From a virus: DNA of 64,000 nucleotides. Every line of letters starts with the position of its first letter. Position 1 is the stretch's first letter. The notes under the pieces were generated by a model. That model was not told where the DNA came from and did not search any database. It saw only the letters and a list, made by a program, of their open reading frames with translations. Positions 6,292-54,465 of this stretch are shown one piece after another. The stretch covers positions 3,677 through 67,676 of the IMG/VR virus record IMGVR_UViG_3300032315_000633. The stretch is one strand, 5' to 3'. A program made the position numbers and the translations under genes.

Positions 6292-6636
6292 TTGATGAAC
6301 CGAAACAACATAGGTGATCTCATGTTATCGGCCATCTCAAAGTATTTGTCGGAAAAGATCCCGCTGTACCGAGAAGTGGACCCGAAGCCCCTTGTCATTG
6401 AGGCTCTTATGAACAACGGACTATTCACCAACGAGAACGGGGTGCTCGGCCTTTCCAAGCTTTCGGAAGGCTATTGGGAGGTTCTTTTCTTTGCGGCTGA
6501 CGATCGTGAGGCTAGAAAAAATCTTATTCAGATGGCGGCCAAGGCACTCGGGGATATCTCGATCACTTTCAATAGGCCGAAAAACAACGATACCGAAAAG
6601 ACTTTTGGCCCTGCGTTTTGGCGGAGGCTCGCATAA
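6292..6636 (+). CDS. hypothetical protein preceding the internal virion proteins
   Basis: Clean ORF; synteny only. Confidence 0.5.
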   Translation: MMNRNNIGDLMLSAISKYLSEKIPLYREVDPKPLVIEALMNNGLFTNENGVLGLSKLSEGYWEVLFFAADDREARKNLIQMAAKALGDISITFNRPKNNDTEKTFGPAFWRRLA

Positions 6637-6639
6637 GTT

Positions 6640-7488
6640 ATGGCAAGCAAACCCAAAAAACCAGAGCTTCAGCAGTACACTCCTCCGACTATTGAGTCGT
6701 CGGTAGACAAGTTTATTGCCCAAGGTGGCAAGTTTCCAGGTATACAGGAAACGATCACCAAGTCGGCTAGTGAGGCACTTAAGGCTAGGGAAGAGCTTTT
6801 CCCAGGTTACGCCGGGACTCTAGGGCAGGCTTGGCAAATTGCCCAAGAACGTGGTGCTGGGTTGGTTAGCCCGGAGATTTCAAAACGGGTTTCGCAGTTG
6901 GCGGCTCAAGGCGGATTTTCAACGGGAACCCTCCCTGGTTCCGAACAAAGCCTACTCCAAGCCGCACAAAGCTACGGCCTAACGGCGCAACAGCTTCAAG
7001 ACTCTGGCGTGCAACTTGGCCAAGCCTTGCGTGGAGAGGCTAATGCTATGATGCCACTCCAAGCCTTAAACCTTGCATTTACCCCGCAAGGCATCCGAGC
7101 CGAGGATATCAGCGTTGGGCAGTACAACACCCAAGTTGCAAATCAGCAACAGATGATCAACTCCCAATACGACCAGCAATACGGCGGCAGCCCGTTTGCC
7201 GGGATTATGGGTGGGGTTCTTGGGGCTGGTGCGGGTGCTGGGCTTGGTTACGCTATGAGTGGGGGTAGTCCTATGGGTGCTCTAATGGGTGGAGGTATGG
7301 GTGCACAATTAGGTGGAGGTGTTGGTGGAGCCTTTGGTGGAGCACAGTCTCAGCAATTTGGCGGTATTTTCAGCGGACTCGGGGGATCTATGGCTGGGCT
7401 TGGGGCATTGGGTAAGATGGGGTGGTTCTCGCCAGCCACAACCCCTAGCAGTTCTGGAAGACTTACCTTAAGGCAATCCGTACAATGA
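6640..7488 (+). CDS. internal virion / DNA ejection protein
   Basis: Gln-rich helical body with a Gly-rich hydrophobic C-terminus; synteny. Confidence 0.6.
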   Translation: MASKPKKPELQQYTPPTIESSVDKFIAQGGKFPGIQETITKSASEALKAREELFPGYAGTLGQAWQIAQERGAGLVSPEISKRVSQLAAQGGFSTGTLPGSEQSLLQAAQSYGLTAQQLQDSGVQLGQALRGEANAMMPLQALNLAFTPQGIRAEDISVGQYNTQVANQQQMINSQYDQQYGGSPFAGIMGGVLGAGAGAGLGYAMSGGSPMGALMGGGMGAQLGGGVGGAFGGAQSQQFGGIFSGLGGSMAGLGALGKMGWFSPATTPSSSGRLTLRQSVQ

Positions 7489-8564
7489 CGCCGGCAGAGT
7501 ATGGCTTTGCAGTTGGTGCTGGGTTACAGCAGGGCTTCAGCAACATTATGGCGGCTCGGCAACAGAGCATTCGTGAGAAGGCGTTCCAAGCCGAACTCGA
7601 ACAGAACGAGAGGCTCTTTCCGCTGAAGGTTGCCCAGATCGAGAACCAAACGCAAGCCGTCAAGTTGCAGTCCGAGATGCAACAATACAACCTCAACCTG
7701 CAGAGGGCTCAGATGGGGATGATGTCGGCAATGGCTCCGATCGACACTGAGATGGCTTTCTTGGCCGAGGCTAACCCGAATGCCTTGTCGTCCTACCAGA
7801 TCCCCGACATCAAGGTCGACCACCCAGATCCTACTTTCGCCAAGTACGCCAGCGACCTCGCCAGACAAAAGCTTCTTGAGAAAAAGACTTCGTTGCTTGA
7901 GGCGACCGAGGATTTCCAGGATCGCAAGACCACCGCCGATACGCTTCGGCAGGCTTCGAGGATCCCTGGGATTGAGACACCCATCAAGGCGCAACTCAAG
8001 GCCGCGGCAACTAAATTGCGTACTGGCGGATACGAAGCTCTTTCCGAGTTTGAGATTCAGAAACTGATCCCGCTTGCCGAGCGTGAAGTGTACGCAAGGA
8101 GCAAGGACTACCGAGAGATGTTGAAGGGCGAGCGTGAATACGGAATTAAGGTGTCCGAAGCTCAGTCGAAGAGGATCGGTGCCTTGGCCAAGGTTTCGGA
8201 AGGTTTGTTTACCACGGAAGAAGCTAGGAAAGCCGCTGAACGCGGGATCTCCGAGCTTGTCGGAGGGGGTCCGTCCAAACTAGAGCCGTCCCAAACTGTT
8301 GAAAGGGTGGCCGCACAGGAAGTCGACCTAGAGCCGGTAAAACTCAAGTTCAAGCAGGGAGCCGAAGCCGTTCGTCGCGGAGCCGACGCAACGGAAGTAA
8401 TTGATAGGTTGGCCACAGAAATTTTGAAAGTCAGCGGAAAAGCGGACAACCCTAAAAACAGAATGGCGGCTCGAAGCCTAGCCGCGCAGAAGCTTCAGCT
8501 TGGTGGCCTCAATGTTCCTTCGTTCGCTCCGCAAGATTTTGGGGATAGCCAAGAAGAAGAATGA
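7485..8564 (+). CDS. internal virion / DNA ejection protein
   Basis: Coiled-coil Q/E/K-rich; lies between an ejection gene and the giant protein. Confidence 0.55.
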   Translation: MTPAEYGFAVGAGLQQGFSNIMAARQQSIREKAFQAELEQNERLFPLKVAQIENQTQAVKLQSEMQQYNLNLQRAQMGMMSAMAPIDTEMAFLAEANPNALSSYQIPDIKVDHPDPTFAKYASDLARQKLLEKKTSLLEATEDFQDRKTTADTLRQASRIPGIETPIKAQLKAAATKLRTGGYEALSEFEIQKLIPLAEREVYARSKDYREMLKGEREYGIKVSEAQSKRIGALAKVSEGLFTTEEARKAAERGISELVGGGPSKLEPSQTVERVAAQEVDLEPVKLKFKQGAEAVRRGADATEVIDRLATEILKVSGKADNPKNRMAARSLAAQKLQLGGLNVPSFAPQDFGDSQEEE

Positions 8565-8582: not shown

Positions 8583-11500
8583 ATGGCTCAGACGATCTTC
8601 ACGCCTGGGGGCGACGCCTTACAAGTTTCACAGCCATCCCCCCAAACCGACAATCCGTTTGAGGATTTGATCCCGGCTGGGGCTCCTTTAGCCGATGATA
8701 TTGGTCTCGGGGAGATTTCCCTTGAGATGACCGATAAGGAAAAAGCCATCACCAATCCGTTCCTAGACATCCCAAAAGCCAATTTAAAAAACCCTCTCGA
8801 AACAGCCCAGGAAGCTTACCGAATTGGGCAAGAATCCGTTGGTATCGATTTCGACGCCTATTCCCTCCAGCGCAGAAACCTCCTAACTGGTCAAGCACCG
8901 ACCCAAGCCGAACTGGATGCGCTCGATGAAAAGGAGCGTCGTCTTAGCGTGGAATCTTACCGAAACCAGGGAGACAACATTGCCACAGGCACGGCTTACA
9001 AAGCAATTGAAATGCTACCACCTATGGTTTCTGGTACGGAAGAGGGTCTCCGAACTGGCGTCCAGTACGGAACCACGATGGCTTTGGCGGCGGGTACGGC
9101 AACATTGCCACTTGGCCCAGAAGTTGCGGCTCCTGCCGCGGCGGCCTTCGGGAAGGTTGGGTTAGCCGCCGGCAGTCTCAAGGGGAGCTACGATTATTGG
9201 AACAAGCAGGGAACTGGTGCGTCTTATCGGGAACTACTTAGGAACAATGTAGACCCTAATTTTGCGGCTCAGGTTTCTCAGGTTGTTGGTCCGGCCTATG
9301 CGGCCATTGAGTACGCACAGGTTAATAAGATCCTTAGTGTTGCCGGTGGACGGCAAGTCAAATCCGCTTTACTCCGTGGGGCTATGAAGGGGATTGCAAA
9401 ATTTATGCCCCAAGTCGCCAAGAGAGGTGTTGCGGCGACGGGCAAGGCCGTAACCGCTTTTGGCAAAACAGCCACAGGAAAGGCCACCGAGTTTGTTTTG
9501 GCTGAGAGTGCGGAGGAAGGTCTTCAGGAAGCCATTACCGCAACTGGAACTGTTATCGGTAAAGCCGAAGCAGAAGCCTTAAAAGAGGGCGCAACCGCAG
9601 AGGCTTTGGATGTCATCGGCCAGCTTGACCTTGGTGACGCTGGTGAGGTGCTTGGTCGTGGTCTAACCGCTTTCCGAGAAAGCATAGGGCCTCTCGCAGT
9701 TCTTGGCGGTTCCGCAAAGTTAACTGGAGCAGCGGCTCGCAAAACGGGCAAGGTGATCGAAAACATTGCTTCGGGTGAACTTGGCGAGCTTTCCGATATG
9801 CGCGCAAAGGTTGCGGCAGCCGGTGCCCCCAAGACCGCTGATGCCCTTGCTGGCATCGACCTAACGGCTCCTACGCTGAAGGCCGAAGACACTGTCGGGC
9901 TGGAGGAAGATCTCGAAGCCGCCGGGGTTCCGATAACCACCGTCGCACCAGCACCGACACCGGTTGCGGAAACCCCGAAACCTTTTGCCGGTCTTCCAGG
10001 CGACGAACTTGGGGCAAAGATTTTCTCGAGCATTCGTGCTCGCAAGCCAATTGCAAAAGCCGACATCGACAAAGTTGGCGGGTTTATGCTATCCTCAAGC
10101 TGGAAGCTCAACGAGGAGACTGGCAACTACGAATATCAAGGACCAACCGATGAAACAAAAGAAACTCCGCAAATTCCAATCGCAGAAGCAGAAGCCACCG
10201 CAGCCAAAAAGCCAGAAGCAAAAGCCGCAGAAGCAGAAGCCGTCGCTCCTGTCGAAGCCGTTAAGCCAAAGCCTGCTGAAAAAGGTGTTGCGCCAGTCGT
10301 ACCTCCACTAGAACAACCCGAAACCAGACCCAACATTCTGGCTCGGAACTGGCTTGCCGAGGTTGACCGAGCCAAGAACAAGCGGGAACAGCAGGATCTG
10401 ATCTCCATCTTCCGTGGGAAGATCGATTCGCTTTCGGAGGATGAACGGCAGGCCTCCAAGATTTTTGACTCCGAATTGATCAAGCGTGCGGAAGCCCCGA
10501 AGGTTGAGGCAACTCAGCCAGCAGCACCAGTTGCACCAGAACGAAAAATTGAATCTTCCGAAACAACTCCAGATGTTCAGTATGTTCGTAATCCAAATGC
10601 TACTAGACATAGGACTGATCCACTTAACAAGAATCAACCGGTTATGGTAAGGGTGCTAGGACTTCAAGAAAAAAGAGCTTTAGCCGCCTACGAAAAGTAC
10701 CTTAACAAACAACCATTAAGCGGTGTAGATGTACAAGCCTTAGTTTCGTGGGCAGAAAAAGAGGGAATACAAATTCCGTTTACCCAAGACCCAAGCACGG
10801 CAGATCAAACCTCCTCAGATCCGTCGTGGATTTTAGATCCAGAAACAGATACTTGGAGTAATAAAACTGAAAAACAAACCAATAAAAAACTAATAATTTA
10901 CACACCAGATTTTTCAAAACCTGGAGATAAAACGGCAGATACTGGCGCACGAAGATACGATCTGTTGCCAGAAAATGCACAGGCGCCGCAAGAAGGAGAT
11001 ACGACTTTTGGTAAACTTGGGTTGCAGGCAGAGGCACCAAAAGCCGAGGCCGCGCCACCCCTCCCCAAATGGGAAGACATCCTCAAGAACCAGAACCAAA
11101 TCAAATTCTTGAAGAAAGTCTTCAAAGACGCAAACGCAAGGCTACCGAAAGAGCAACAGCTTGTCCCGAAGAATGGCTGGAAGAAACAAGACTTTTTCAA
11201 GGCTCTCGAAACCATTTACGGACAGCTTACCCAACTTGAATTTGCCAAGCCCGAACTAAAGGCTCCCGCACCTGGAACGATTGCGCCTCAAGCTGTCGAC
11301 AAGACTGCTCAACAAAGGCAACGTCGGTTGGCAAGCTTGATGAAGGTTTTCTCCAACCCAAAACTAAACGGGGATCAAACTTACTTTCGTGACACGGCTC
11401 TTGAGATGGCTCGCAGAATCTCAAAGCAAGTTGCTGGTAGCTTCCCCAACCTCGCTTCCGCCGACACGGAAATCTACACAAGGTTAGTCGAGCGTATTGC

Positions 11501-14500
11501 TGGTCGTTTACTCTCGTCGGTCAATCTTGGCAGACCCATCTTGTTCAACGAGAAAGGCCAGCCTACCGATCTTACGGAAGAAGCCATTTCAAAGTTCCTA
11601 ACCTTCTCGGCTAGGAGGGCTGGGCAAGACGCAATCAATGTGCAAGCGGCCAGACGAGAGGTTGCCGCCCAGTTTGGTACGGCACCAGCCGAGGGAACGG
11701 TTACACAACCAGAGGCCGCCAGAGAAGAAGCCAAGCCAGCCGGGATGCAGATCGCCGAAGCTCCGGCCGCACCCGTGGTGGAGTCCAAAGCGGTTACGGC
11801 TCTCCGTGAGGCCGCCAAGCTGATCCGTGACCAGAGTGGTCCGGAGGTCAAACTGGTCATCGATTGGATCGTGGACACGATGATCGGTGCCGACACCGAA
11901 CTTGGCAGACTCACGACCTACAAGGATTTGGCCGACTATCTGTCCAAGGTTGCAAACCGCAAAGTCAGCGACAAGCGTGTCGGGGAATTCGTCAACAAGG
12001 TGGTCGAACAGATCGCCCAAAACCTCCGTGATGAAAACATCCAGGTCGATGTGCAGGCACTGGAGATGTTGCTCACTCCCGAGGGTCGTGCCGCCCGTGA
12101 GCGCAAGGCAACCGAGGAGGCGCAACGCCGCCAGGATCGTGAAGTTCGCCAAGCCATTGCAAATCTTGCCGATCGTGCCCGAAACCTAAAGGTTGGTTAC
12201 GGCGCACGGCAGGCTTTGGTCGACGCCATCGGCGTGGCCAACACATTAACAAGGGCAAGGATCACGTCCGAGATCATCGTTCCTCTGGAGGAAGGCTTGA
12301 TCGGAGAGAACGAGGTTGCCCAGAGACTCGACAACATTCAGAAAGGAATTGAAAATGCAAAGCCCAGAGTTAGACAAGCTGTTCCCCGGCGTGGCCGTGG
12401 AGCCGCTCAACAAGTTGAAGAAGGTCCGGTTCGTGGCCGAACTGGAGAAGGCGTCGAAGGAGAACGGAGGGGTGCCCGTGCTGGCGGAGTTGTTGAAGGA
12501 CAACCCGAGCCTACCGATGGAGGAATTGCTCCAGTCGGTGCACGAACTGGCGAAGCTGGACGAGAAGTGGGCGAAAAGCAGCCAGAAGCTCCGAGCCCTG
12601 TTTCCGTTGACCCCGGCTTAAGATCGAAGAATGCCCCGAGTGCCGTAAAGACATTGGTCAACACGGCAACTTCGTCGGGATTCCCGGCCAGCTATATCAT
12701 AGACCTAAACACCAGAAGCGCAGTTTCGGTCTCGATCGAGGATGCCGACAGTGATGCGGAAAATCCGGTCATCCGTGTCAATCCAAGGTTGCTCCAACAA
12801 ATCGAAAGAACCCTTGGTAAAAAAGCCTATTCCCAATATGCCTTCCTAGCCATTGCGGAGGAGATCGCACATTTCAAATATCTGAAGATGCTCAAAAGGG
12901 AGGCCAACGAATTGGGGATCAACTACCGCCAGCATCTGAAGAACGAGACAAAGCGTGTCGCCAAGATCATCAAAGGCCGCCGTGGTCTGAAGCAAAAGCT
13001 CGAAAAGTTGTACAACGACGGCAAGCCTTTCACTGGCAAAGATGGTGAAACCAAAATGGTCTTGGAGTTTATGCGGATGCTCACCCAGGAGAAGATGACG
13101 GGTGCCATCACAGAATCCACCTACCTTGATGTTGCGTCCATCCTTCGTTCGATGGAGCCCCAGGATAGGAGATTTGTATTCCGCTTCCTAGACGCCATCC
13201 GCCAGTTCCTTTACGGCTTGAGCGGGAGGACGGCGGCCGAGACTAAGTTCCTCCGAACCACCGCAGACTCGATCGCCCAAATGGCTCAGAGGGCTACCAG
13301 AGATCTGGCAAAGCCAAACGAGACTCTCCCAGTCTCTATGAACTATTTCCCAACGAAGACTGATTCCCTTACTGAAACGCAACCGGTAAAGGGTGAATTG
13401 CAGAAAGCTCGTGAAGAGCTTCGCAAGGACACTGGGCTTAACCGAGCCAACCTAAAGTTTCTCCAGGATTACGCCAAAGAACTTGGGATTAAAGTCCCGA
13501 CCACCAAGCGAAAGGTTGTCGTATTCAACGAGAAAACCCGTAAACACGAGGAGAAAGAGTTTAAGGTTCCGTTTTGGAAGAAAGCCGATTATGTGCAGGC
13601 CATCAAGGCCAAGCTGGAATCCCTCAAGAAAGAGCCGAAAAGGCCAAGCGACGAGGATCTTATAGGTGCGGCAGTGCCCACGGACAGGCCTTACTGGATG
13701 ACCAAGGAAGGTAAAGTGATCGATGTCGAGGAAACCGCCCTCGTCGATCTTATGTCTATCGGAAGCCACGCCGAGGCAGCCGTCGAATGGTTGCGGGAGA
13801 ACGAGCCGAAAGCCACCTTCTTGACCGAGTGGAGCCTGCTTGATCCTCTGGATCGCAAGGAACGCCAGCAGATGCCCGTGATGGAAATGTTCAAGCGTGG
13901 ATGGCTCCGAGTTGTCGGTGACGGGTTCAACCTTTATTTCGAGGGTAGCCCCAACCAGACACAGCTGGACAAGCTGTTCGAGTCGGCCATCAATGACGAG
14001 GTCAAGCTCATCCAGGATCTGAGCAGCCTGTCTGGCCGTGCCCGTTCCAAGACGCTTTATGAGCCCCCGCTTGAAGACGAAATTGGTGCGGCTATGCCGA
14101 GGCACGGGTTCTCCACGACCGAGCCGAAAGTCAGTCTGGATTGGGTCAGCCTTCCCGACAGCCTCGAAGGTCTGGAACAAATCGATGTTCTGCCTGGGAC
14201 TTTCGATGTCCGCGTGTATATGGACGAAACTGGCCTCAAGTATGTCGTAAAGCGTGGCCAGACCCAGGAGCAGTTCGAGAACGAGATTGCGGCGGAGAAT
14301 GTTTACCGAATCCTCAACTACCCCGTTCCGAAATCCAAGCTGATCACCCTCCCGAACGGAGAGACTGCCAAACTTTCGGAGTTCATCTATGGTCCGACCT
14401 TGGCCGAGTTTGTCCGCCAGCAAAGTGGAACCAACCCCGAGGTTGTGCAAAAGCTTTACGAGGAGATCGGTGACGGTCTGTTGATCGACGCATTCCTGTT

Positions 14501-17500
14501 CAACTACGATGTCCTCGGCGAAGGCCTCGACAACATCATAGTCGGGCACGACGAGCTTTTCGACCAGGATGTGTTCATCTCTGGTTCACCTTCCGTGGTC
14601 AAGTATACGGCGTATCGGATCGACAACGGGGGCACTCTCGACACCCGAGCCACCGGGCTTCGTCGGGAAGAGCCCTTCTTCTACGACTCTTTCACGAAGT
14701 TGCAGGAGAAGTACCCGATGTTCAACCTCAAGGCCTCGGATGTTCTGGCTCAGATCTCCGACCTTGTGCTCAACAGCGACCAGATCCTAAACTCCATTCC
14801 CGAAAGGTTGCGACCGATGATGGCTCAAAGGTTGCAGTGGATGGCCGACCAGTTGAGCGCAACCGACACGATGCCTCCGTCCATCGGGTACACGGACGAG
14901 GAGATCGTCAACCACTTCACCAAGCTTTCCCAGGAAATGGCGGCGGTCGAGGTCACCCGAAACGCCGAAGGCCAGCTGATCAACAAAAGGACAGGCCTTC
15001 CGTCCACGATCCAACTCCTCAACCAGCGTGGCGAGGTCATTCGAACTGAACCCAAGTCGGAGTTCAGATACCGCCTCGAGCGGACTCCTTCCTTCAAGAT
15101 GTGGTTCGGGGATTGGGAAAACTTCCCCGAAGGCAAGGGGACGAGCAAGATTCTGGATGCTTCGGGCGAGCCTCTCGTTATGTACCACGGAACCTCTTGG
15201 GACAAACGCCAGCTTTCCTACACATTTGTGCAAGACAGGCTTCGGGAGGACATCAACAATCGTTTCTACCCGATGCGGTCTTTCTCCACGGGCAACGCTT
15301 TCCGTGGTTTGTGGGTCGCCTCGAGCCGTCAGTTTGCCGAAGACTGGGCGAACGAATCGACCTTCGAGGAATACAACGAGCAGGTTGTCGTCCCGCTTTA
15401 CATCAAGGCGACCAATCCGTTTGACCCGAGGAACCCCGAGCATATCGCCAAGCTTATCGGATACGCCCGTGAGAAGAAGGGCGAGTTCACGCTAAATCCG
15501 TATCGCCAGCTTGCTTTGGAAAGCGGGTTCTTTGACTGGACGGTGTTCGAGGGAGTACCGGCTGGGAGCGCAACTCCCGCAACTGGTGCGGAATTTGACG
15601 GGCTTTCCGAGACAGAACGGAAGAGAAGGTTCTACTCGCTGTTCCCCTACACCACTCTGGAAGCCATCATCAACCTCGGGTTTGACGGGGTCTGGGTCAA
15701 GGAAAAGGAGCTAGGCTCCTCGGGGATGCTCGAAAGAAGGCCGAAGGATCGGATCGAGTCGATCATCGCCGCAAGGCAACTCAATGATGCCGCGGCGGAG
15801 CAACTGGAAACCGAGCGTCTCAAGCAGGATCTGGACGAATACGATAAAGGCTCGTCCTGGAACCTCCTTCTGTGGAGACCCGATGGTGCAAAGTCTGCGG
15901 TCAATAGTGGAAGGTTTAAGACGCAACAGCAGATCAACAATTTCAAGCCGACCAGCAACGCCGCGGCTAGGGCTGGTATGGTCAAGCGTAACGGCAAGAC
16001 GCTCTGGAACGAATATGTAAAAGACGGCGTGACCTATGTCAGCTACGAAGATCCCGAGAAGCTGGTCTCGTATGCCCATATGACCACCAACGAGCTTTCC
16101 AAGAAGAACATCGCCAAGGATGTCGTTTCCGATGGGGTTGTCTATGTAGGTGAAAGAATCGTTCCTGGGCCGAAGAGCTACAGCCGTCGTGAACCCGCCG
16201 ACCTTCTCGGAGCCGCAATGCCTCGCAGATTCGGGGTTCGTCTGAAGGACAAGGTCAGTGAAGAGGCCTACGCCAAGCTCAAGAACCTCAACTACGAGCC
16301 GATCCCAGACGCTATGACTGAGGCCGAGGCCGACAACTATTTGGCCAAGAACGGACTCCGTGGCTCGATGGATGCCGCCCTTTCCGACGCCAGCCCTCTC
16401 CAGCACGGTTCTCGTGAGCTTCTGGCTCAGAAGATCATCCTCGGGATGAACGAGCTCTATGCCAAGGACAAAGACCCAAGAATCCTCGACGACCTTCTGA
16501 TGTTTATCGACCGCTTCCTGGAGCAATCCTCGGGCATTGGCCGTGCGCTCCGAGCCCTCTCCTTCTGGAGCAATCTTACGCCAGAAGGTATGCTGATGCT
16601 CTACAAGAAGAAGTCAGACGAAACGAATCGTGAAGTCCGTGACAAGTTCAATGTCTTCTTCAACAAGGTCAAGAGCGAGCTTTCGGTTCTGCCCGAAGGC
16701 ACGATCGACGAAGTCTTGAAGAAGATGTCTGGTGTTCTGGCGAAGGCCGAAACCGCCGCCGAGGAATCCAGAAAGCGTATTGCCGAGAGCAATGCGATGG
16801 GGTTCTGGGAAGCCTTCTCCAACCAGATGGGCGAGAGCATTGCCGACAAGGCTTCCCAACAGCTGACCGAAGCCGAGGCGGAAGCCGCCCAAGCCGCCGG
16901 GGTTCCGTTGGAAGAGATGACTGCGGAACAACGCAAGGCCGTCAAGAAACTGGAGAACGCCAAAAGCATCAACCAAGCCGCCCAGGAAATGAGCCGTGAG
17001 ATCAAGCGGATGTTTATGGCTCTGGCCGAGGAGCAGGGTCGTCGCATCCGTGACCCACGAATCAACACGAACGAAGAGTTCGCCAATATGACAGTCGACG
17101 AGCAGGAGAAACTGCTCAAGGAAGAACGGGAGGCCAAACAGCGCAAGAACTTCACGGCGATGCTTTCCCGCTGGCCGAAGGCTTTGCAGGCTTGGGAAAA
17201 GGCGAGCGATGCCATCCGTGCCCGTACCGCAACCAACCCGGAGCTAGCCGAAATGTTCAATGGGTTCCTAGGGCTGGTTCTCGAGTCCCCCTTCACAATG
17301 CCCCAACTCAAAAGGTTTATCTCGCTCCGTGGCGTAAAGCTCGAGGACTTGATCCGTCAGCACTACGAGGAAGGCAAGCTGGCCAACAACGCCTACTCCC
17401 TTGCCAGAGAGATCGTGCAGGAAGCTGGTCTCGGGGCTTGGGAGGAAGAGACTGGGGCAGATGTGGCGGACGAACTTGGCCTTGCAAAGTACAAGCGTGA

Positions 17501-19877
17501 AGAGGGTATGGCCAAGGAAGAACCTTCCGCCCGTGAAAAGATACCTTCGCTTTCCGAAAGGCTGACCAACGCCATTGCCCTCCAGATCCAGGAGATCGTG
17601 GCCAAGGAGAGCGAGAAGAAACTCAATCGTCTTATCCAGTCCTACGCCGACAAAAAGCTTGAGCCTTCGTTGCGTAGGTTTGCGAACCGAATTGTCCAGT
17701 ACCAAGCCCTTGGCCTTTTCAACAATGCCTACGCCTGGAACGAGTTCCAGAAACAAGAAGGGTTGGACAAGCTAAAGCCAGAGGTTGTCGAGAAGATTGC
17801 CAACATTATGGGCGAAGCCCAGAACCTCGTGGGTTACCGCAAGGACGAAAAGATTGGCGATGCCCTTTCGCTGATTGCCTTTGAAACCCAGATCGACGCC
17901 TACAACTTTGCGAAATCCTGGTGGTACTTTTCAATCCTTTCGGGTATCGGAACCCAGTTTGCAAACTTCTTGGGCAACGCCACCAACACGGCACTCTTGG
18001 CCATCCCGACGATTTCGAAGCACCTCATCAAGGGTTACGCCACGGATCGCACAAGAAGCAAGGCCATCGTTGGATCTATGCTTCGGGCACTTTCACTTTC
18101 CTTTATGGACGCTGGCAATGTCCTAATGACTGGCCGTGTCGGAACTAGGAAAACCGAGCCTAAGTTCTTTGGCAAGGCGGCAACGGATTTCTTCGAAGTA
18201 GTGGCAAGAAACGCAACACAGGACAATGTGAAGCAAAAGGTTGGGAAGATATCTGCCACAGTTGCCTCCCTTCTGCGGAGGACAATGACCGCAGTCGATA
18301 TGGTTTTCTACAACTTTAACAAGGAAGTCTATTTGTTCGAGGCGGCCTACCAGAAGGCGGAGCAAGCTGGCCTCAAGGGAGAGGCGGCCACAGCCAAAGC
18401 CTTGGAGTACACTTTCAGAAATTCCGAACACTTGGTTGCGGCTCAGTCCCAAGCCGAGGCGCAAGGGTATGTTGTCGACTCTGACAACTCGGCCACAAGA
18501 TTCCTCCAACAAGCCGAGCAGGCCATCCGTGTGCAGGAGATCATCGACGAAAAGGCACAAGCGGAAAACCCGGAGGTTGCCGCCACCGGGCAGATTTACG
18601 GAACCGAGCTCACCTACAACGAGGAACCTCGTGGAGTTCTCGGAGCCTTCCATCGGATGATCGGGTCGTTTGCCAAGGAGCATCCCCTCAAATCGGCCAT
18701 CTTTGTGCCGTTCACCAGGATCGTTGCCAATGTCTGGAACCAGAGCATCGACTTCACGGGTTGGGGAGTGATGCGTGCCCGTGGTCTCCCGAAGGTTCTT
18801 GGGAAGAACTTGGCCGGGAAGTTTGCAATGGAGTACCAGGGAACTGCGGAAGAGCAGAAGATCCAGAGGGATCTGGCGTATGTCCGAGGAATCACGGGTC
18901 TGAGCACGGTGTTTATGCTCGGCTTGCTCGACCAGATCCTTTGCGGGAACTACGAAAAGTACGGGATTGAGCTTTGTGTCAACGGGCAGGGTCCGAAAGA
19001 AGCCGCCCAGAAAGAGCTGCTCAAGAATCGTTTGGGTTGGAAACCCAACTCAATCTATCTCCGTATGGCTCATGTGCCGGTATTGAAGGACGGGGTTTAC
19101 GCCAGCTATATGTTTTCGCCTCTGGCTATGGGCTTGTCGGCTGTCGGATTGTTCAACGACAACGAGACTTACGACTACTTCAATGAAAAGGAACCTGCGG
19201 ATGTGGCCTTGGCAATGGCTCACCGAGTTGCCACGATTATGTTTGATATGAACTTCCTCTCTGGGGCCAGCGACTTGTTTGAGATGTTGAACCCCAGCGA
19301 ACCAGAACGGGCTTTATCCAAAGCCAAGTCATTCCTATCGAGACTTGGGTCGGCGATGGTTGTGCCAAACTTTGTTCGGGATCTCGATCAGCTTCTGATT
19401 TCCCCGACGCTGGGCTATGGCCGTACTGCCAGGGAAGGTCCGATCCAAGGTGCTTTTGTTGCCAACACTCCGATTGTTAGGCAGATCTACGGCCAGACGG
19501 AATTGGATATGCTTGGACAGCCAGTGCAGATGCAGTTTCGACCCATCAGTTTCGCAAAGAAGGACGCCTTGCTTCAGGTTCTAGTCCAGAAGAACGCATT
19601 ACCAACGGCTCCCAAGAAGGATCGTTTGTTAGGGGTGGTCAAGATGACCGACGAACAATACGCCGACTTCCGCAAAGCTAGGGCGGAACAACTGGGTGAA
19701 GACCTAGGACGTGAGGGAACTATCGAGAGGCTTGAAGTTATGACCCCAGAGATGGCTCAACTTTATGTTGGCAAGCTTGCCCAGAAAGCGAATGCCATCG
19801 GGAAGGCCAAGATCATCCGAGACAACCAGGAACTATTGCAAGAGGTTAGGCAAGAGAAGACCAAAGGTCTCCGATAA
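8583..19877 (+). CDS. giant polyvalent internal virion protein (3764 aa) with sigma-like, peptidase-like, kinase-like and ART-like modules
   Basis: EEGLQE N-terminal motif; EEIAH; VVK...E...D..DN...IDNGG kinase motifs; FKMWFGDW...EPLVMYHGT...YIKATNPFD...GFDGV ART motifs; helical ejection-type C-terminus. Confidence 0.8.
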   Translation: MAQTIFTPGGDALQVSQPSPQTDNPFEDLIPAGAPLADDIGLGEISLEMTDKEKAITNPFLDIPKANLKNPLETAQEAYRIGQESVGIDFDAYSLQRRNLLTGQAPTQAELDALDEKERRLSVESYRNQGDNIATGTAYKAIEMLPPMVSGTEEGLRTGVQYGTTMALAAGTATLPLGPEVAAPAAAAFGKVGLAAGSLKGSYDYWNKQGTGASYRELLRNNVDPNFAAQVSQVVGPAYAAIEYAQVNKILSVAGGRQVKSALLRGAMKGIAKFMPQVAKRGVAATGKAVTAFGKTATGKATEFVLAESAEEGLQEAITATGTVIGKAEAEALKEGATAEALDVIGQLDLGDAGEVLGRGLTAFRESIGPLAVLGGSAKLTGAAARKTGKVIENIASGELGELSDMRAKVAAAGAPKTADALAGIDLTAPTLKAEDTVGLEEDLEAAGVPITTVAPAPTPVAETPKPFAGLPGDELGAKIFSSIRARKPIAKADIDKVGGFMLSSSWKLNEETGNYEYQGPTDETKETPQIPIAEAEATAAKKPEAKAAEAEAVAPVEAVKPKPAEKGVAPVVPPLEQPETRPNILARNWLAEVDRAKNKREQQDLISIFRGKIDSLSEDERQASKIFDSELIKRAEAPKVEATQPAAPVAPERKIESSETTPDVQYVRNPNATRHRTDPLNKNQPVMVRVLGLQEKRALAAYEKYLNKQPLSGVDVQALVSWAEKEGIQIPFTQDPSTADQTSSDPSWILDPETDTWSNKTEKQTNKKLIIYTPDFSKPGDKTADTGARRYDLLPENAQAPQEGDTTFGKLGLQAEAPKAEAAPPLPKWEDILKNQNQIKFLKKVFKDANARLPKEQQLVPKNGWKKQDFFKALETIYGQLTQLEFAKPELKAPAPGTIAPQAVDKTAQQRQRRLASLMKVFSNPKLNGDQTYFRDTALEMARRISKQVAGSFPNLASADTEIYTRLVERIAGRLLSSVNLGRPILFNEKGQPTDLTEEAISKFLTFSARRAGQDAINVQAARREVAAQFGTAPAEGTVTQPEAAREEAKPAGMQIAEAPAAPVVESKAVTALREAAKLIRDQSGPEVKLVIDWIVDTMIGADTELGRLTTYKDLADYLSKVANRKVSDKRVGEFVNKVVEQIAQNLRDENIQVDVQALEMLLTPEGRAARERKATEEAQRRQDREVRQAIANLADRARNLKVGYGARQALVDAIGVANTLTRARITSEIIVPLEEGLIGENEVAQRLDNIQKGIENAKPRVRQAVPRRGRGAAQQVEEGPVRGRTGEGVEGERRGARAGGVVEGQPEPTDGGIAPVGARTGEAGREVGEKQPEAPSPVSVDPGLRSKNAPSAVKTLVNTATSSGFPASYIIDLNTRSAVSVSIEDADSDAENPVIRVNPRLLQQIERTLGKKAYSQYAFLAIAEEIAHFKYLKMLKREANELGINYRQHLKNETKRVAKIIKGRRGLKQKLEKLYNDGKPFTGKDGETKMVLEFMRMLTQEKMTGAITESTYLDVASILRSMEPQDRRFVFRFLDAIRQFLYGLSGRTAAETKFLRTTADSIAQMAQRATRDLAKPNETLPVSMNYFPTKTDSLTETQPVKGELQKAREELRKDTGLNRANLKFLQDYAKELGIKVPTTKRKVVVFNEKTRKHEEKEFKVPFWKKADYVQAIKAKLESLKKEPKRPSDEDLIGAAVPTDRPYWMTKEGKVIDVEETALVDLMSIGSHAEAAVEWLRENEPKATFLTEWSLLDPLDRKERQQMPVMEMFKRGWLRVVGDGFNLYFEGSPNQTQLDKLFESAINDEVKLIQDLSSLSGRARSKTLYEPPLEDEIGAAMPRHGFSTTEPKVSLDWVSLPDSLEGLEQIDVLPGTFDVRVYMDETGLKYVVKRGQTQEQFENEIAAENVYRILNYPVPKSKLITLPNGETAKLSEFIYGPTLAEFVRQQSGTNPEVVQKLYEEIGDGLLIDAFLFNYDVLGEGLDNIIVGHDELFDQDVFISGSPSVVKYTAYRIDNGGTLDTRATGLRREEPFFYDSFTKLQEKYPMFNLKASDVLAQISDLVLNSDQILNSIPERLRPMMAQRLQWMADQLSATDTMPPSIGYTDEEIVNHFTKLSQEMAAVEVTRNAEGQLINKRTGLPSTIQLLNQRGEVIRTEPKSEFRYRLERTPSFKMWFGDWENFPEGKGTSKILDASGEPLVMYHGTSWDKRQLSYTFVQDRLREDINNRFYPMRSFSTGNAFRGLWVASSRQFAEDWANESTFEEYNEQVVVPLYIKATNPFDPRNPEHIAKLIGYAREKKGEFTLNPYRQLALESGFFDWTVFEGVPAGSATPATGAEFDGLSETERKRRFYSLFPYTTLEAIINLGFDGVWVKEKELGSSGMLERRPKDRIESIIAARQLNDAAAEQLETERLKQDLDEYDKGSSWNLLLWRPDGAKSAVNSGRFKTQQQINNFKPTSNAAARAGMVKRNGKTLWNEYVKDGVTYVSYEDPEKLVSYAHMTTNELSKKNIAKDVVSDGVVYVGERIVPGPKSYSRREPADLLGAAMPRRFGVRLKDKVSEEAYAKLKNLNYEPIPDAMTEAEADNYLAKNGLRGSMDAALSDASPLQHGSRELLAQKIILGMNELYAKDKDPRILDDLLMFIDRFLEQSSGIGRALRALSFWSNLTPEGMLMLYKKKSDETNREVRDKFNVFFNKVKSELSVLPEGTIDEVLKKMSGVLAKAETAAEESRKRIAESNAMGFWEAFSNQMGESIADKASQQLTEAEAEAAQAAGVPLEEMTAEQRKAVKKLENAKSINQAAQEMSREIKRMFMALAEEQGRRIRDPRINTNEEFANMTVDEQEKLLKEEREAKQRKNFTAMLSRWPKALQAWEKASDAIRARTATNPELAEMFNGFLGLVLESPFTMPQLKRFISLRGVKLEDLIRQHYEEGKLANNAYSLAREIVQEAGLGAWEEETGADVADELGLAKYKREEGMAKEEPSAREKIPSLSERLTNAIALQIQEIVAKESEKKLNRLIQSYADKKLEPSLRRFANRIVQYQALGLFNNAYAWNEFQKQEGLDKLKPEVVEKIANIMGEAQNLVGYRKDEKIGDALSLIAFETQIDAYNFAKSWWYFSILSGIGTQFANFLGNATNTALLAIPTISKHLIKGYATDRTRSKAIVGSMLRALSLSFMDAGNVLMTGRVGTRKTEPKFFGKAATDFFEVVARNATQDNVKQKVGKISATVASLLRRTMTAVDMVFYNFNKEVYLFEAAYQKAEQAGLKGEAATAKALEYTFRNSEHLVAAQSQAEAQGYVVDSDNSATRFLQQAEQAIRVQEIIDEKAQAENPEVAATGQIYGTELTYNEEPRGVLGAFHRMIGSFAKEHPLKSAIFVPFTRIVANVWNQSIDFTGWGVMRARGLPKVLGKNLAGKFAMEYQGTAEEQKIQRDLAYVRGITGLSTVFMLGLLDQILCGNYEKYGIELCVNGQGPKEAAQKELLKNRLGWKPNSIYLRMAHVPVLKDGVYASYMFSPLAMGLSAVGLFNDNETYDYFNEKEPADVALAMAHRVATIMFDMNFLSGASDLFEMLNPSEPERALSKAKSFLSRLGSAMVVPNFVRDLDQLLISPTLGYGRTAREGPIQGAFVANTPIVRQIYGQTELDMLGQPVQMQFRPISFAKKDALLQVLVQKNALPTAPKKDRLLGVVKMTDEQYADFRKARAEQLGEDLGREGTIERLEVMTPEMAQLYVGKLAQKANAIGKAKIIRDNQELLQEVRQEKTKGLR

Positions 19878-20050: not shown

Positions 20051-20353
20051 ATGCCACTCAGCCGAGTCAACAAAGACAAGATGCCTTGCAACTCACCACG
20101 CCGAAGCACTCGCCCCGGCAAAAAGATGATGGTCAAGGCTTGCGAGAATGGCAAAGAAAAAATCGTTCATTTCGGAGCCAAGGGTTACGGACATAACTAC
20201 TCGGCCGCCGCCAGAAAATCATTCAAGGCTCGCCACAACTGCTCCAATCCTGGGAGCAAGCTGGGAGCCAGATACTGGGCTTGCAAGAAGCTTTGGGCTG
20301 GGCCGGGTGGCTCAACTCTCTCAAGCCCCAAGAGCCGAAAGGGTAAATACTAA
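20051..20353 (+). CDS. small basic phage protein (ARHNC...ARYWAC family)
   Basis: K/R-rich; VHFG..GY...ARKSFKARHNC...ARYWACKKLW motif. Confidence 0.7.
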   Translation: MPLSRVNKDKMPCNSPRRSTRPGKKMMVKACENGKEKIVHFGAKGYGHNYSAAARKSFKARHNCSNPGSKLGARYWACKKLWAGPGGSTLSSPKSRKGKY

Positions 20354-20823
20354 TGGGCTTGGGCTCCGAAAATCCCGGACTCTCCAAGTTGGAGAGTCTC
20401 TTTAGCCGTGGAGCCTTGAAGGGCAAGACGGGAATGGTTGTGGAGAAAGCCATCGACAATGGCATTGATCCCAAGCTTTTTGCGGCGATCATTGCCCACG
20501 AGACTGGCTCTGGGACGAGCAACGCTATCATCAATTACAATAACCCGGCTGGGATTATGGATCCCAAAACCAAGTGGACAAAGCTCAAGCGGTTCGGGTC
20601 ATTGTCCGAAGGTCTGGATTACTCCGCCAAGAATCTGAAGCGCAGGCTTGACCAGACTGGTGGGGATATCGGGAAGCTCGCCTCAATCTATGCACCCATT
20701 GGGGCAGAGAACGATCCAAGAAATCTCAACGCCAACTGGCAATCAGGGGTCAACAAATTTTACAATTTGCTTGCAGCCAACGAAATTTCTGAGGGTGACG
20801 CTGGGCTAGCCAGTAATAAATAA
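20353..20823 (+). CDS. glucosaminidase / lysozyme-like peptidoglycan hydrolase
   Basis: GIDP.LFAAIIAHETGSG...NNPAGIM...YAP...W motifs. Confidence 0.75.
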   Translation: MGLGSENPGLSKLESLFSRGALKGKTGMVVEKAIDNGIDPKLFAAIIAHETGSGTSNAIINYNNPAGIMDPKTKWTKLKRFGSLSEGLDYSAKNLKRRLDQTGGDIGKLASIYAPIGAENDPRNLNANWQSGVNKFYNLLAANEISEGDAGLASNK

Positions 20824-22492: not shown

Positions 22493-23965
22493 TCAAACCT
22501 CCTTCTTTGTATAGTTATGTATCCGAGTTCCGATCCACCGCATACACGGCACGGCCATTGAATTGCCAAGTGCCTTGTAGCGTGGACCATCGGGACACTC
22601 GCTTGCTGGCTTCCCCCTCCAGGGGATCAGCGTGTGGTCATCGGGAAAGCCCTGGAGTCTTTCACATTCCATAGGCAATAACCGACGAACCGCCGAACGA
22701 ACTCTCGAATCGAGCACACCTCCAGTGTGGTTGATGTCTGAAGCCGCCGAAGATATGGCTTGGCCAATATCGCTAGTGGCCTGGTTGTAGGCATCAAAGG
22801 CTAGGACTTCACCACCCTCCTGCACCAGTGGGACATTCCCACCGCCAGTCCCATAGCGGGACACGCAACTTGGAGCCACATCCAACGGGCCAGTCACTCG
22901 GCTGTCATTGGGATGGTTCTCATAAAGGACGGCGTGCTTGTCGCCCTTTGTAAGTGTAGGACAAGGATCTCCTTCCTTGCCAACCCCAAGCCCGTTGCCC
23001 TTGCCGTCTTGCCGATCCCCACGCTTACCAGCGTGGCGGGTGGCTTGGTCGTGAATGGGTATTGCAACTGATATACATTTACCCTCATTAACATACTGGT
23101 TACCCACTCCTTTGAAGTCCCTTGCGCATAGAGCTCCGACAACAGAAGAGGCAACCAGATCGGTTGCATCTTTGTAATCTCTAGCCTTTATTGTGGATGC
23201 AGTATTGTCGTTTGAATATTCCCCAAACGCTTGCATCCTGAAAGCTTCGGCGGTTACTAGGTGTTCTCCTCGGCTTGAGGGGACTCCGCCTTCACCACCG
23301 CTTCTAAGGCATCCCGCAACATCGGCGGAAGTGTCTTGCCCCGAACCTCGGCTCGGCGCAAGATCCCTGCGCAGGCCTTCGAACTCAAGTAGAATCTCTG
23401 TGGGATCTCCTTGGTCTCGAGGACATGCGACAACGAACACACGCTTGCGTCGTTGGGCCAAGCCGAAATATTGGGCATCGAGGCACCGCCAAGCGATTGT
23501 CCTTTTGGAGCCATACACACAACCAGCGTCTGTCCACTTGTCCCCTGTCGGTTTGAGTTCACAGCCTTCTCCCGACAACGCTCCCAGAAAGCAACCGAAG
23601 GCGTTGTCTTTGGAACTGAGGACGCCTGGGACATTCTCCCAGACGATCCACTTGGGGTTGAAGTGGTCGCACATTCTGACGAAGGTGAGGGTGAGTCCGC
23701 CTCTTGGGTCGTCGAGTCCCTTTCGGACACCTGCCACGCTGAAGGCTTGGCACGGTGTTCCTCCGCAAATAAGGTCAATTGTGTCGCTGAGTTTCCAGCT
23801 TTCATACTTGGTCATATCTCCTAGGTTGGGAACCATCGGCCACCGATGTTTCAGCACCGAGGCTGGGAATGGTTCGATTTCTGAAAAGGCGATCGGCGTC
23901 CAACCCAGTGACCCCCACGCCACTGAGGCGGCTTCGATGCCAGAGCAAACGGATAGATACTTCAT
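22493..23965 (-). CDS. DNA (cytosine-5) methyltransferase
   Basis: Motifs I (SVCSGIEA), IV (GGTPCQ), VI (ENVPG), VIII (QRRKRVF), IX (ECERLQGFP) and X (YKALGNS). Confidence 0.95.
   Translation of the reverse strand: MKYLSVCSGIEAASVAWGSLGWTPIAFSEIEPFPASVLKHRWPMVPNLGDMTKYESWKLSDTIDLICGGTPCQAFSVAGVRKGLDDPRGGLTLTFVRMCDHFNPKWIVWENVPGVLSSKDNAFGCFLGALSGEGCELKPTGDKWTDAGCVYGSKRTIAWRCLDAQYFGLAQRRKRVFVVACPRDQGDPTEILLEFEGLRRDLAPSRGSGQDTSADVAGCLRSGGEGGVPSSRGEHLVTAEAFRMQAFGEYSNDNTASTIKARDYKDATDLVASSVVGALCARDFKGVGNQYVNEGKCISVAIPIHDQATRHAGKRGDRQDGKGNGLGVGKEGDPCPTLTKGDKHAVLYENHPNDSRVTGPLDVAPSCVSRYGTGGGNVPLVQEGGEVLAFDAYNQATSDIGQAISSAASDINHTGGVLDSRVRSAVRRLLPMECERLQGFPDDHTLIPWRGKPASECPDGPRYKALGNSMAVPCMRWIGTRIHNYTKKEV
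23257..23805 (-). CDS. alternative-frame ORF nested in the MTase gene, M.EcoHK31I beta-subunit-like
   Basis: CSLSHVLE...FYLSSKACAGILRRAEVRGKTLP..L..AL motif on the same strand in a shifted frame. Confidence 0.65.
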   Translation of the reverse strand: MKAGNSATQLTLFAEEHRAKPSAWQVSERDSTTQEADSPSPSSECATTSTPSGSSGRMSQASSVPKTTPSVAFWERCREKAVNSNRQGTSGQTLVVCMAPKGQSLGGASMPNISAWPNDASVCSLSHVLETKEIPQRFYLSSKACAGILRRAEVRGKTLPPMLRDALEAVVKAESPQAEENT

Positions 23966-53133: not shown

Positions 53134-54465
53134 ATGGCGAACATCCTTGCCGCGGCTAACGGCAATTGGAGCAGCACAGCCACTTGGATTGGCGGTGTTG
53201 TCCCCACGGCGGTAGACAATGCCTACGCAAACAATAGGACTGTTACTATTGATGTGAACGCAACCGTCACCAAACTCAGCACGCAGGCTGAAAACGGAGC
53301 GACGGCCGGCGGAAGTTTTACTTTTGCCTGCGCTTTGACCCCCATTACGGTAACGGCTACGACAATCGCAGCAGGAACAACGAGCTGCTTAACGATAACA
53401 AGTAGCGGGTTATCCGGAAGATCTGCAATTGTTTACGCCACTGATGTATACGCTTCCAGTGCCAACGTTTCAGTATACGGAATACAGGCGGGTCCGTCGG
53501 TAGGTGAAACCTTTTATTTTTATGGTGGTAATTTAAGAGGTCTTACAGGTTTTAATTCATCGGGTCTTCAAGTAAACGGAAACGGAACATTTATAATAAA
53601 CGCAAACTGTTACGCTTCTGCAACAACTCAGTCTCATGGACTTACTTTAACGAATAATACTTCTCCAATAGTACAAGTAACTGGAAATATTTACGGTGGG
53701 ACTACATCTTCAGGAGGTATTGTATTAAACAGTATCACAACCCCAACGTTTACCATAACTGGTGATGTATATGGAGGGAATAATCAAAACGGAGCAGGTC
53801 TTGCTCTTACGAACAACAATTCAGTTACCTTGATCGGTAACGCTTATGGTGGAACTACTGGGAGTTTGGCTTATGGTATTACCCACTCTGGAACTGGCGT
53901 TTTGACAATTGTTGGCACATGTGAAGCAGGAACATCAACAGGTGCAGCTGGTTTGTTTATGAGTGGAGGCGGTACAGCAAACGTAAAACGAGCCAAAGGT
54001 AACGGGTATGGTGTTGGGTCTACTGGGATTGCGGCCGCCAACGGGATTTTAGTTGGGAATCAGGCCGCTATTGTCAATGTTGAAGAGCTTGAATTTGGGT
54101 CTAGGGGGATGTCCCCCGTTAGCGGTAACATTCGGCTTACACCACTTTCCACAAATGTCTGCGTTGTGGCCTTAACGTCAAGCTCTACCAAGACACTTGT
54201 CGATGCATCTTCTTCGCTTGGCTTCCCGGCTACCTCAAACGTTCGTTCTGGCATTTCGTACAATGCTGGAAGTTTTGTCGGCACTTGCGCTGTCCCGACC
54301 CCTTCTTCCGTTGTTAGCGGAGTGGCTGTAGATGCTACCGTAGGCACGGCAAGTTTATCTCCAGCTAGCGTGTGGGGTTACCCAATAGGTTCTGTTTCAA
54401 GTGGCTCGGTTGGGGAAAAACTTAAGAAAACCGCAATTCCCGCTGATATCATTGCCCTAGGATAA
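53134..54465 (+). CDS. beta-helix fibre/spike protein 1
   Basis: G/N/T-rich (V/I)xGxxxGG repeats; paralogue of the next gene. Confidence 0.7.

Follow-up and report, generated by a model that had tools for sequence, protein, structure and literature searches.

A 3764-residue, probably packaged polyvalent phage protein combining a kinase-fold and ADP-ribosyltransferase unit with a recurrent border motif

Introduction

What is the function of a single viral gene encoding 3764 amino acids (aa), and does its product enter the host together with the phage DNA? This question is raised by a 64,000-nucleotide stretch of virus DNA (the window), which corresponds to bases 3677–67676 of one 67,676-base record of IMG/VR (IMGVR_UViG_3300032315_000633) rated 97% complete. 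The giant gene is a single plus-strand open reading frame (ORF) devoid of internal stop codons, extending from the ATG at position 8583 to a stop ending at position 19877. A preliminary description of the window presented the product as a seemingly injected virion protein with ejection-protein-like termini and a middle part containing sigma-like, EExxH peptidase-like, HeH-like, W..EG..H..GWLRV, kinase-like, and ADP-ribosyltransferase (ART)-like segments. Here, we report a computational analysis of this protein, its relatives, and its gene neighborhood. The reading that we favor, with a probability of about 0.6, is that the gene encodes a packaged and injected polyvalent virion protein in which effector cassettes are located between carrier ends.

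Results

The giant gene defines a family of phage proteins

When 5.8 billion proteins were searched through a word index, 15 relatives of the 3764-aa protein, designated P0001, were identified. Fourteen of the relatives are 2665 to 4219 aa long and 52 to 99% identical to P0001, and the remaining one (2858 aa) has only a short stretch in common with it. Since the relatives originate from independent contigs, the giant gene is not an assembly artifact. A scan of viral contigs additionally revealed seven related viral loci (L001 to L007), the most distant being L003, L006, and L007, which are only 36–37% identical. Together, the relatives and the seven loci indicate that the giant gene is real and defines a family so far known only from uncultured phages. 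Comparison with 50,697 phage records by megablast gave no match to the giant gene, and only short local matches were obtained with phage records by tblastn. Profile searches of the PDB sequences returned nothing significant, both for the whole protein and for alignments of the kinase, ART, helical, peptidase-plus-HeH, C-terminal, and N-terminal regions. Most of the family falls outside current domain libraries.

Kinase-fold, ART, and small domains are modeled as one unit

An AlphaFold2 (AF2) model of residues 1833–2542 was built on a 35-row alignment comprising the family and 13 remote homologues. Its mean predicted local distance difference test score (pLDDT) was 77.5 and its predicted template modeling score (pTM) was 0.74, with a pLDDT of about 80–93 over the kinase domain. 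Foldseek comparison of this model with the PDB gave at least 500 matches at E ≤ 1e-3. All 49 rows listed were protein kinases, with a probability of 1.00, including PknB, YabT, Rio2, and Bud32. Residues K1890, E1901, D1976, D1983-N1984, and D2014 are kept in at least 90% of the 35 aligned sequences. The AF2 model and the Foldseek matches indicate that residues 1840–2125 adopt a predicted protein-kinase fold, as proposed for the kinase-like segment.

The next domain was matched by the Pfam family ART-PolyVal (PF18760) with a score of 29.9 bits, for a cut-off of 31.2. The same family scored 31.8 bits in P0018 and 28.8 bits in P0017, and its assignment is precomputed in 13 of the 15 relatives. 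A library-wide phmmer search with residues 1340–2539 matched 2429 proteins with E ≤ 1e-3. Among the 150 matches listed, the majority align at residues 2159–2209, in the stretch containing WFGDWEN..YHGT (residues 2174–2204), and the three matches that were scanned (P0125, P0165, and P0074) are strong ART-PolyVal proteins. We presume from the family name Tox-ART-HYD2 that the H-Y-D set consists of the His of YHGT, an aromatic residue, and the Asp of xDG. H2202 and D2368 are invariant, with long insertions between the ART motifs. Short homologues consisting of the ART only were misaligned onto the kinase region and were dropped; the ART part of the AF2 model therefore relies on family sequences only. 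By sequence comparison, residues 2126–2445 are a putative ART-PolyVal domain at the Pfam threshold, which supports the ART-like segment.

In the model, the kinase-fold, ART, and small alpha/beta domains form one compact unit (pTM of 0.74), and no border motif (see below) separates the kinase fold from the ART. Fourteen remote proteins containing the kinase domain were scanned: ADPrib_exo_Tox was found in five, Phage_Mu_F in three, and InPase in one, nothing being recognized in the other five. The ADPrib_exo_Tox partners imply that the pair formed by a kinase fold and an ART recurs with two different ART families, and this recurrent pairing hints at a functional couple. The kinase-like domain is also joined to a known packaging handle, the head-protein domain Phage_Mu_F. 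The remote relative P0024 has five stretches in common with residues 1340–2539 of P0001, and the labels HipA_C, HipA_2, and APH appeared in this protein only, over homologous stretches. As a separate observation, P0024 is a metagenomic protein of 3416 aa in which ADPrib_exo_Tox is found in two stretches and HipA/APH-like kinase sequence in several.

A peptide motif recurs at module borders

The motif [LI]GAA[MLV]P is present in three copies, which mark the borders of the W..EG module, of the kinase-ART-small unit, and of the C-terminal module (Table 1). The expected number was 0.005 copies per protein, and two or more copies were obtained in none of 20,000 shuffles. The related pattern GAA[MLVI]P had no copy in 143 other proteins (225,553 residues). 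Five aligned relatives (P0003, P0008, P0010, P0012, and P0015) contain an extra, motif-flanked module of 276–588 aa after residue 1686 and before the W..EG domain. P0018 has the same flanking motifs; its extra module (residues about 1669–2259, positions 15506–17194 of L002) gave no Pfam match. In P0005 (residues 1476–1491) and P0006 (residues 1481–1496), the motif is duplicated in tandem as LGAALPxxLGASMP with no module in between, as if a cassette slot had been left empty.

The third codon positions of the Gly and Ala residues vary freely among motif copies, indicating that selection acts on the peptide rather than on the DNA. An internal Shine-Dalgarno sequence followed by a start codon (GGAG..ATG), the M, V, or L of the motif corresponding to that codon, was also considered as an explanation of the motif. 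It was rejected because these third positions are free and because CTC, TTA, and ATC codons also occur at the hydrophobic residue.

Zincin-like, HeH-like, and W..EG domains

The motif EEIAH at residues 1426–1430 (positions 12858–12872) contains E1427 and H1430, which are invariant in 14 aligned family members. The corresponding sequence is HETVH in L003, L006, and L007, and EEIAH, EEVAH, EEVVH, or QEIIH in the clade of P0001. In the AF2 model (pLDDT of 73–90 over the domain), a helix is followed by three strands, the helix bearing the motif, and a helix harboring the invariant E1455. The core of zincin metallopeptidases (MPTases) has the same topology, with a helix, a three-stranded sheet, the HExxH helix, and a Glu-bearing helix (Iyer et al., 2017, J Bacteriol, PMC5512222; statements based on this paper refer to the parts of it available to us). 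This model, together with the HExxH motif of the distant orthologues, supports the peptidase-like nature of the EExxH segment. Residues 1336–1600 are predicted to be zincin-like, and their activity in this clade is uncertain.

Two stretches were considered as HeH-like, at residues about 830–885, for which AF2 predicted a short helix-loop-helix, and at residues 1600–1690. Neither gave a family match. The domain that follows is strongly conserved and was modeled by AF2 with low confidence. Its signature, W1705..E1709-G1710..H1729..G1773-W-L-R-V1777, is present at the expected place, and its key residues, as those of EEIAH, are invariant in the 14-sequence alignment.

The named motifs of the preliminary description do therefore exist, and its six segments fared unequally. 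The kinase-like, ART-like, and EExxH segments hold. The sigma-like segment is sub-significant (see below), the HeH-like segments are compatible with a predicted helix-loop-helix but match no family, and the W..EG segment, although present and invariant at key positions, has no fold assignment. The fold search on predicted structures that had been suggested as a check supported the kinase fold, but no peptidase was present among the matches listed and the sigma matches remained below significance.

A helical region with similarity to sigma factors

The region upstream from the zincin-like domain is predicted by AF2 to be largely helical. It begins with the HeH-like stretch and continues with two four-helix blocks (residues 907–1031 and 1069–1150), which are joined by a disordered linker, and with additional helices up to residue 1255. 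The second block includes a helix-turn-helix (HTH)-like stretch (residues 1113–1150). The pLDDT was about 76–93 in the helices of residues 826–1262.

Foldseek comparison of the model of the helical and peptidase regions (residues 826–1832) with the PDB gave no match at E ≤ 1e-3. Sigma factors, or chain F of RNA polymerase (RNAP) initiation complexes, which we take to be sigma, accounted for 21 of the 49 rows listed, with E values of 0.3–1.4. The best probabilities were 0.66 for Bacillus subtilis SigH and 0.51 for Mycobacterium tuberculosis SigH. The BFVD matches included a phage 'specialized sigma subunit' of 225 aa, with a probability of 0.99 (E of 0.016), and a second phage sigma, with a probability of 0.87. 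In a language-model search, the nearest Atlas clusters bearing a Pfam assignment were viral Sigma70_r2 families (0.92–0.93), with few features in common.

Every test at the sequence level was negative. Neither Sigma70_r2 (PF04542) nor r4_2 (PF08281) matched at E ≤ 10, and Pfam searches of six family members at E ≤ 10 revealed no sigma family. Alignment of the helical region by hhalign with Escherichia coli RpoE and nine phage extracytoplasmic function sigma factors gave probabilities of at most 2.3%, the best local piece falling on the HTH of sigma region 4. A homologue search with RpoE as the query added no depth, since the 120 matches listed were only near-identical RpoE proteins (86–100%). 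Thus, the sigma-like segment is backed by fold and language-model hits below significance but by no sequence test, and the similarity of residues about 907–1255 to sigma factors is suggestive and unproven.

If this similarity were genuine, residues about 907–1255 could be a diverged, virion-borne sigma factor that, once freed, loads the host core RNAP onto phage early promoters, the linkers making the protein a true virion polyprotein. We consider this extended scheme rather improbable. It would solve the problem of the first transcript by injection of a sigma factor, not of an RNA polymerase as in phage N4, with host proteins being modified meanwhile by the kinase-ART unit, and the virion polyprotein would be cut into separate effectors as are the polyproteins of RNA viruses. 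With a virion-borne sigma factor, host takeover would follow a new route, for which the evidence is weak. A literature search for virion-packaged sigma factors or for this set of domains found nothing pertinent by title or abstract. No packaged sigma factor is mentioned in the parts of PMC7824862 available to us, and the word 'sigma' occurs 0 times in the text of PMC5512222. Profile searches detected neither a sigma factor nor an S78 prohead protease in the genome, and no repeated promoter-like motif was found in the window.

The ends of the protein

The C-terminal conserved module contains one moderately hydrophobic stretch (residues 3431–3454). The last 1222 residues of P0001 align to P0175, a protein of 1333 aa, over residues 3024–3704 (E of 4e-22) and 2543–2718 (E of 3e-7). 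P0175 itself matches the PHROG families 'internal virion protein' (3e-10) and 'DarB-like antirestriction' (1e-17). The Atlas neighbors of the module are viral clusters of 997–1133 aa (0.97) and an LPD38 cluster (0.95). As judged from these similarities, the C-terminal module is akin to phage proteins of about 1000–1300 aa that occur on their own.

The N-terminal 470 residues have no PHROG, Pfam, or PDB match; they possibly correspond to a carrier or packaging part. The proposal that both termini are ejection-like is therefore borne out in part, since the C-terminus reaches an internal-virion-protein PHROG through one intermediate but the N-terminus matches nothing. The low-complexity region that follows (residues 471–825) is affected by deletions of 20–243 aa in 12 relatives, and a thirteenth, P0015, lacks residues 1–877 entirely. 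In P0018, residues 740–794 gave a weak FtsK_gamma-like winged-helix match (E of 0.0011, 19 bits, for a cut-off of 30.6), at a place where P0001 is of low complexity.

Gene neighborhood

The giant gene closes a plus-strand block that contains the genes for the terminase large subunit and a 'virion structural protein', followed by the tail-fiber gene. The 114-, 282-, and 359-aa genes are located between the tail-fiber gene and the giant gene. The giant gene thus comes last in a conserved run, after orf114 and the genes of 282 and 359 aa, and a small ORF and a lysozyme gene follow it. Each of the seven related loci contains parts of the run extending from orf114 to the lysozyme gene. Every locus that reaches them has kept the 282-aa gene, the giant gene, the lysozyme gene, and the next ORF, of 118 aa, and the 114- and 359-aa genes are kept in some of the related loci only. 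None of the three upstream genes has a PHROG or Pfam match. Consequently, the view that the giant gene is the third gene of an ejection-protein block can be retained for its position at the end of a conserved run, but not for the two genes preceding it, which match no family in these databases. The 100-aa ORF downstream matches part of a PHROG annotated as 'minor head protein and DNA pilot'.

Table 1. Position of the giant gene, its predicted regions, and the adjacent genes in the window.
Feature	Position	Strand	Basis
Upstream genes of 114, 282, and 359 aa, in synteny with the giant gene	6292–8564	+	
ORF of the 3764-aa polyvalent protein (P0001)	8583–19877	+	15 relatives
N-terminal Ala/Gly-rich region, aa 1–470, conserved in the family	8583–9992	+	
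Variable low-complexity A/P/E/K-rich region, aa 471–825	9993–11057	+	Composition, deletions in relatives
Helical region ('sigma-like' segment), aa 826–1262	11058–12368	+	AF2 model
Arg/Gly-rich linker, aa 1263–1335, predicted disordered	12369–12587	+	pLDDT <50, model residues 438–511
Zincin-like, metallopeptidase-like domain, aa 1336–1600	12588–13382	+	AF2 topology, motif
HeH-like helix-loop-helix and beta hairpin, aa 1600–1690	13380–13652	+	AF2 secondary structure
Border motif 1, IGAAVP, aa 1694–1699	13662–13679	+	Linker pLDDT <50
W..EG..H..GWLRV domain, aa 1700–1832	13680–14078	+	Invariant residues
Border motif 2, IGAAMP, aa 1834–1839	14082–14099	+	Model-2 residues 1–21, pLDDT <50
Predicted protein-kinase-fold domain, aa 1840–2125	14100–14957	+	AF2, Foldseek, conserved residues
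ART-PolyVal-type domain with insertions, aa 2126–2445	14958–15917	+	Pfam, homologues
Small alpha/beta domain, aa 2446–2541, modeled with kinase and ART	15918–16205	+	
Border motif 3, LGAAMP, aa 2542–2547	16206–16223	+	Model-2 residues 694–710, pLDDT <50
C-terminal conserved module, aa 2548–3764	16224–19874	+	Similarity to stand-alone phage proteins
100-aa ORF and 156-aa glucosaminidase/lysozyme gene, downstream	20051–20823	+	

Other features of the record were as follows. The tail-fiber-like protein (716 aa, positions 3722–5872) contains RCC1 repeats and a weak N-terminal match to the carbohydrate-binding family CBM_5_12. A minus-strand gene (positions 22493–23965) encoding a 490-aa DNA methyltransferase (PHROG 116, E of 1e-85) opens a leftward replication block. 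A stretch of 62 nucleotides is common, with 79% identity, to positions 54403–54464 and 56290–56351. It corresponds to the 3' ends of two adjacent plus-strand ORFs (53134–54465 and 54469–56352), whose proteins end in a near-identical peptide; the first of these ORFs has no PHROG match. The first 28 bases of the record, and no longer prefix, recur at positions 67541–67568, 136 bases before the end, and this repeat may be the remnant of a terminal overlap. No tRNA was found.

Discussion

The giant gene lies between a tail-fiber gene and a lysozyme gene, in a block recurring in seven loci. According to the scheme that we propose, the conserved N- and C-terminal carrier parts would hold the protein in the particle, where it is probably packed in the capsid, and it would exit with the DNA. 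The cassettes between the carriers would be the helical region, which is probably DNA- or RNAP-binding, the zincin-like domain, the 140-aa W..EG domain, and the kinase-ART-small unit. The latter would phosphorylate and ADP-ribosylate host proteins before phage gene expression; modification of host proteins is known for T4 Alt and the T7 kinase (PMC5512222). The linkers bearing the motif may be cut, either while the protein is still in the capsid or once it has entered the host, and cutting would free the modules; the protease would be the zincin-like domain of the protein itself or another one.

Several observations weigh against this proposal. We infer not only enzyme activity and linker cleavage but also virion location and injection, the last two from gene context only. 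The whole protein has no PHROG match at E ≤ 0.01 and its termini have none at any meaningful E value, PHROG 6651 and related internal-virion or ejection families included; the link to 'internal virion protein' involves the single intermediate P0175, at 22% identity. Pfam LPD38 gave no match, nor did its control. In the kinase-fold domain, the Gly-rich loop is degenerate (PGTFDV, compared with LGGSTGA in remote homologues), and neither Kinase-PolyVal (PF18762) nor HipA_C (PF07804) matched at E ≤ 10. The PF18760 match covers positions 1–70 of the profile, that is its first half, and a Trp (W2244) occupies the position of the ART-PolyVal Tyr. The first zinc-binding His is replaced by Glu in P0001 and by Gln in L002. 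MPTase-PolyVal (PF18818) had no match at E ≤ 10 in the genome or at E ≤ 1 in the protein, and the Foldseek matches listed from the PDB and BFVD for the zincin-containing model include no peptidase. Finally, the clade displaying the canonical HExxH has more degenerate border motifs (IGAAIP, IGAPAMP, and LGAAEVRP), which argues against simple self-cleavage by the zincin-like domain.

The atypical sites, namely EExxH or QExxH, the degenerate Gly-rich loop, the ART Trp, and the half Pfam profile, would also be expected of a purely structural ejection or internal-core protein, a scaffold of a DNA conduit in which enzyme-like domains are decayed relics kept for shape or binding. Such a role would fit the best BFVD matches of residues 826–1832, which are long helical proteins, some of them tape-measure or minor tail proteins, and the likeness of the C-terminal module to stand-alone phage proteins. 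We nevertheless consider it unlikely. The K/E/D/D-N/D set of the kinase and the H..D pair of the ART are invariant down to 36% identity, an invariance that is difficult to account for unless ligands are bound or reactions catalyzed and that argues against decayed relics, and the same kinase-like domain is fused elsewhere to bona fide ART or MuF domains. These MuF head-domain fusions of remote kinase-domain homologues also speak against an unpackaged intracellular polyprotein that is expressed late and acts in the producing cell, by anti-defense or host shut-off, after processing of its linkers in the cytoplasm. Virion location is deduced from gene order only and no virion-protein family is matched directly, as this alternative would have it. 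However, the gene occupies a place in a conserved structural block ending with the lysozyme gene, and the C-terminal module has a homologue that matches the internal-virion-protein PHROG. We regard an unpackaged protein as very unlikely.

Within the packaged, polyvalent reading, the role of the border motif has to be considered separately. Cutting of the modules at [LI]GAA[MLV]P, the motif being a proteolytic processing site, is a tentative proposal to which we give slightly less than an even chance. It is also conceivable, if rather doubtful, that the motifs are conserved junction or docking elements, such as a fixed hinge or a short peptide to which a packaging partner binds, and that the protein works uncut, as does the N4 virion RNA polymerase (vRNAP). 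N4 vRNAP, ArdC, and TraC1 carry an MPTase and travel full-length (PMC5512222). The clade with the best-conserved border motif has a non-canonical zincin motif, and the tandem motifs of P0005 and P0006 enclose no module, as may be expected of uncut proteins. In contrast, the motifs are located in disordered linkers exactly at module borders, and they are often preceded by acidic residues and followed by a hydrophobic residue and Pro, a context that resembles a protease site without proving it.

Comparison with known systems places the protein among, and partly beyond, previously described phage effectors. The internal-core proteins gp14, gp15, and gp16 of T7 are encoded near the tail genes, the last being the largest, and are ejected to form a DNA conduit. 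The run ending with the giant gene is similar in its location near the tail genes and in its largest member being last. It differs in the lack of any sequence or profile match, in the lysozyme being encoded by a separate downstream gene, and in protein sizes, which differ greatly. The N4 virion RNA polymerase, gp50, is about 3500 aa long. P0001 resembles it by its giant size, in a genome of similar size, and N4 gp50 is packaged, injected for early events, and equipped with a zincin-like domain (PMC5512222). It differs in that a T7-like RNAP domain was not found in P0001. More generally, no T7-type RNAP was detected in the genome, a weak negative since PF00940 matched nothing in control genomes either. 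An N4-like vRNAP, which could have been guessed from the size, was rejected as the identity of P0001, as there was no PHROG match, no N4-like tblastn match, and no PF00940 match, the controls for the latter being silent.

T4 Alt is an ADP-ribosyltransferase that is carried in the phage head, is injected along with the DNA, and modifies the host RNAP and other proteins (PMC5512222). It is a single-domain effector of another ART family, whereas the ART of P0001 is a module joined to a kinase fold. The DarB and DdrB proteins of P1 are, as proposed for P0001, large multi-domain proteins packaged in the head, and DdrB contains an MPTase and undergoes proteolytic processing (PMC5512222). P0175 matches the DarB-like PHROG, and a tblastn match of residues 2079–2207 falls within a gene whose annotation is 'DarB-like antirestriction protein'. 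However, no helicase or methyltransferase domain was detected in P0001, and the similarity is limited to short stretches.

The closest precedent is provided by the polyvalent proteins. Capsid-packaged polyvalent proteins combining an MPTase, a Tox-ART-HYD2-like ART, and a kinase have been reported (Iyer et al., 2017; PMC5512222). The claim that the domain combination was undescribed is therefore overstated, and the central idea of the preliminary description was already known. Injection into the host and autoproteolytic release have also been proposed for polyvalent proteins, no cleavage site being named in the available parts of that paper (PMC5512222). Polyvalent proteins have 2–15 effector-type domains and a packaging or late gene context. 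P0001 contains zincin-like, kinase-fold, and ART-PolyVal domains and at least three further conserved modules, and the same plus-strand block includes terminase, tail-fiber, and lysozyme genes. The likeness thus concerns the number of effector domains, the gene context, and the set of zincin-like, ART, and kinase domains. In contrast, the MPTase-PolyVal, Kinase-PolyVal, and LPD38 models derived from that work do not match here. The kinase is a full protein-kinase-fold match outside the family described in the parts of PMC5512222 available, which mention neither a border motif nor a sigma-like region such as the possible one found here. The new elements are a family largely beyond the domain models, a kinase fold and an ART modeled as one unit, a border motif defined in sequence, and a weak sigma-like hint. 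If P0001 is packaged and cut at its motif, it would add to the known polyvalent proteins a sequence-defined and testable example of the delivery of multiple enzymes with phage DNA.

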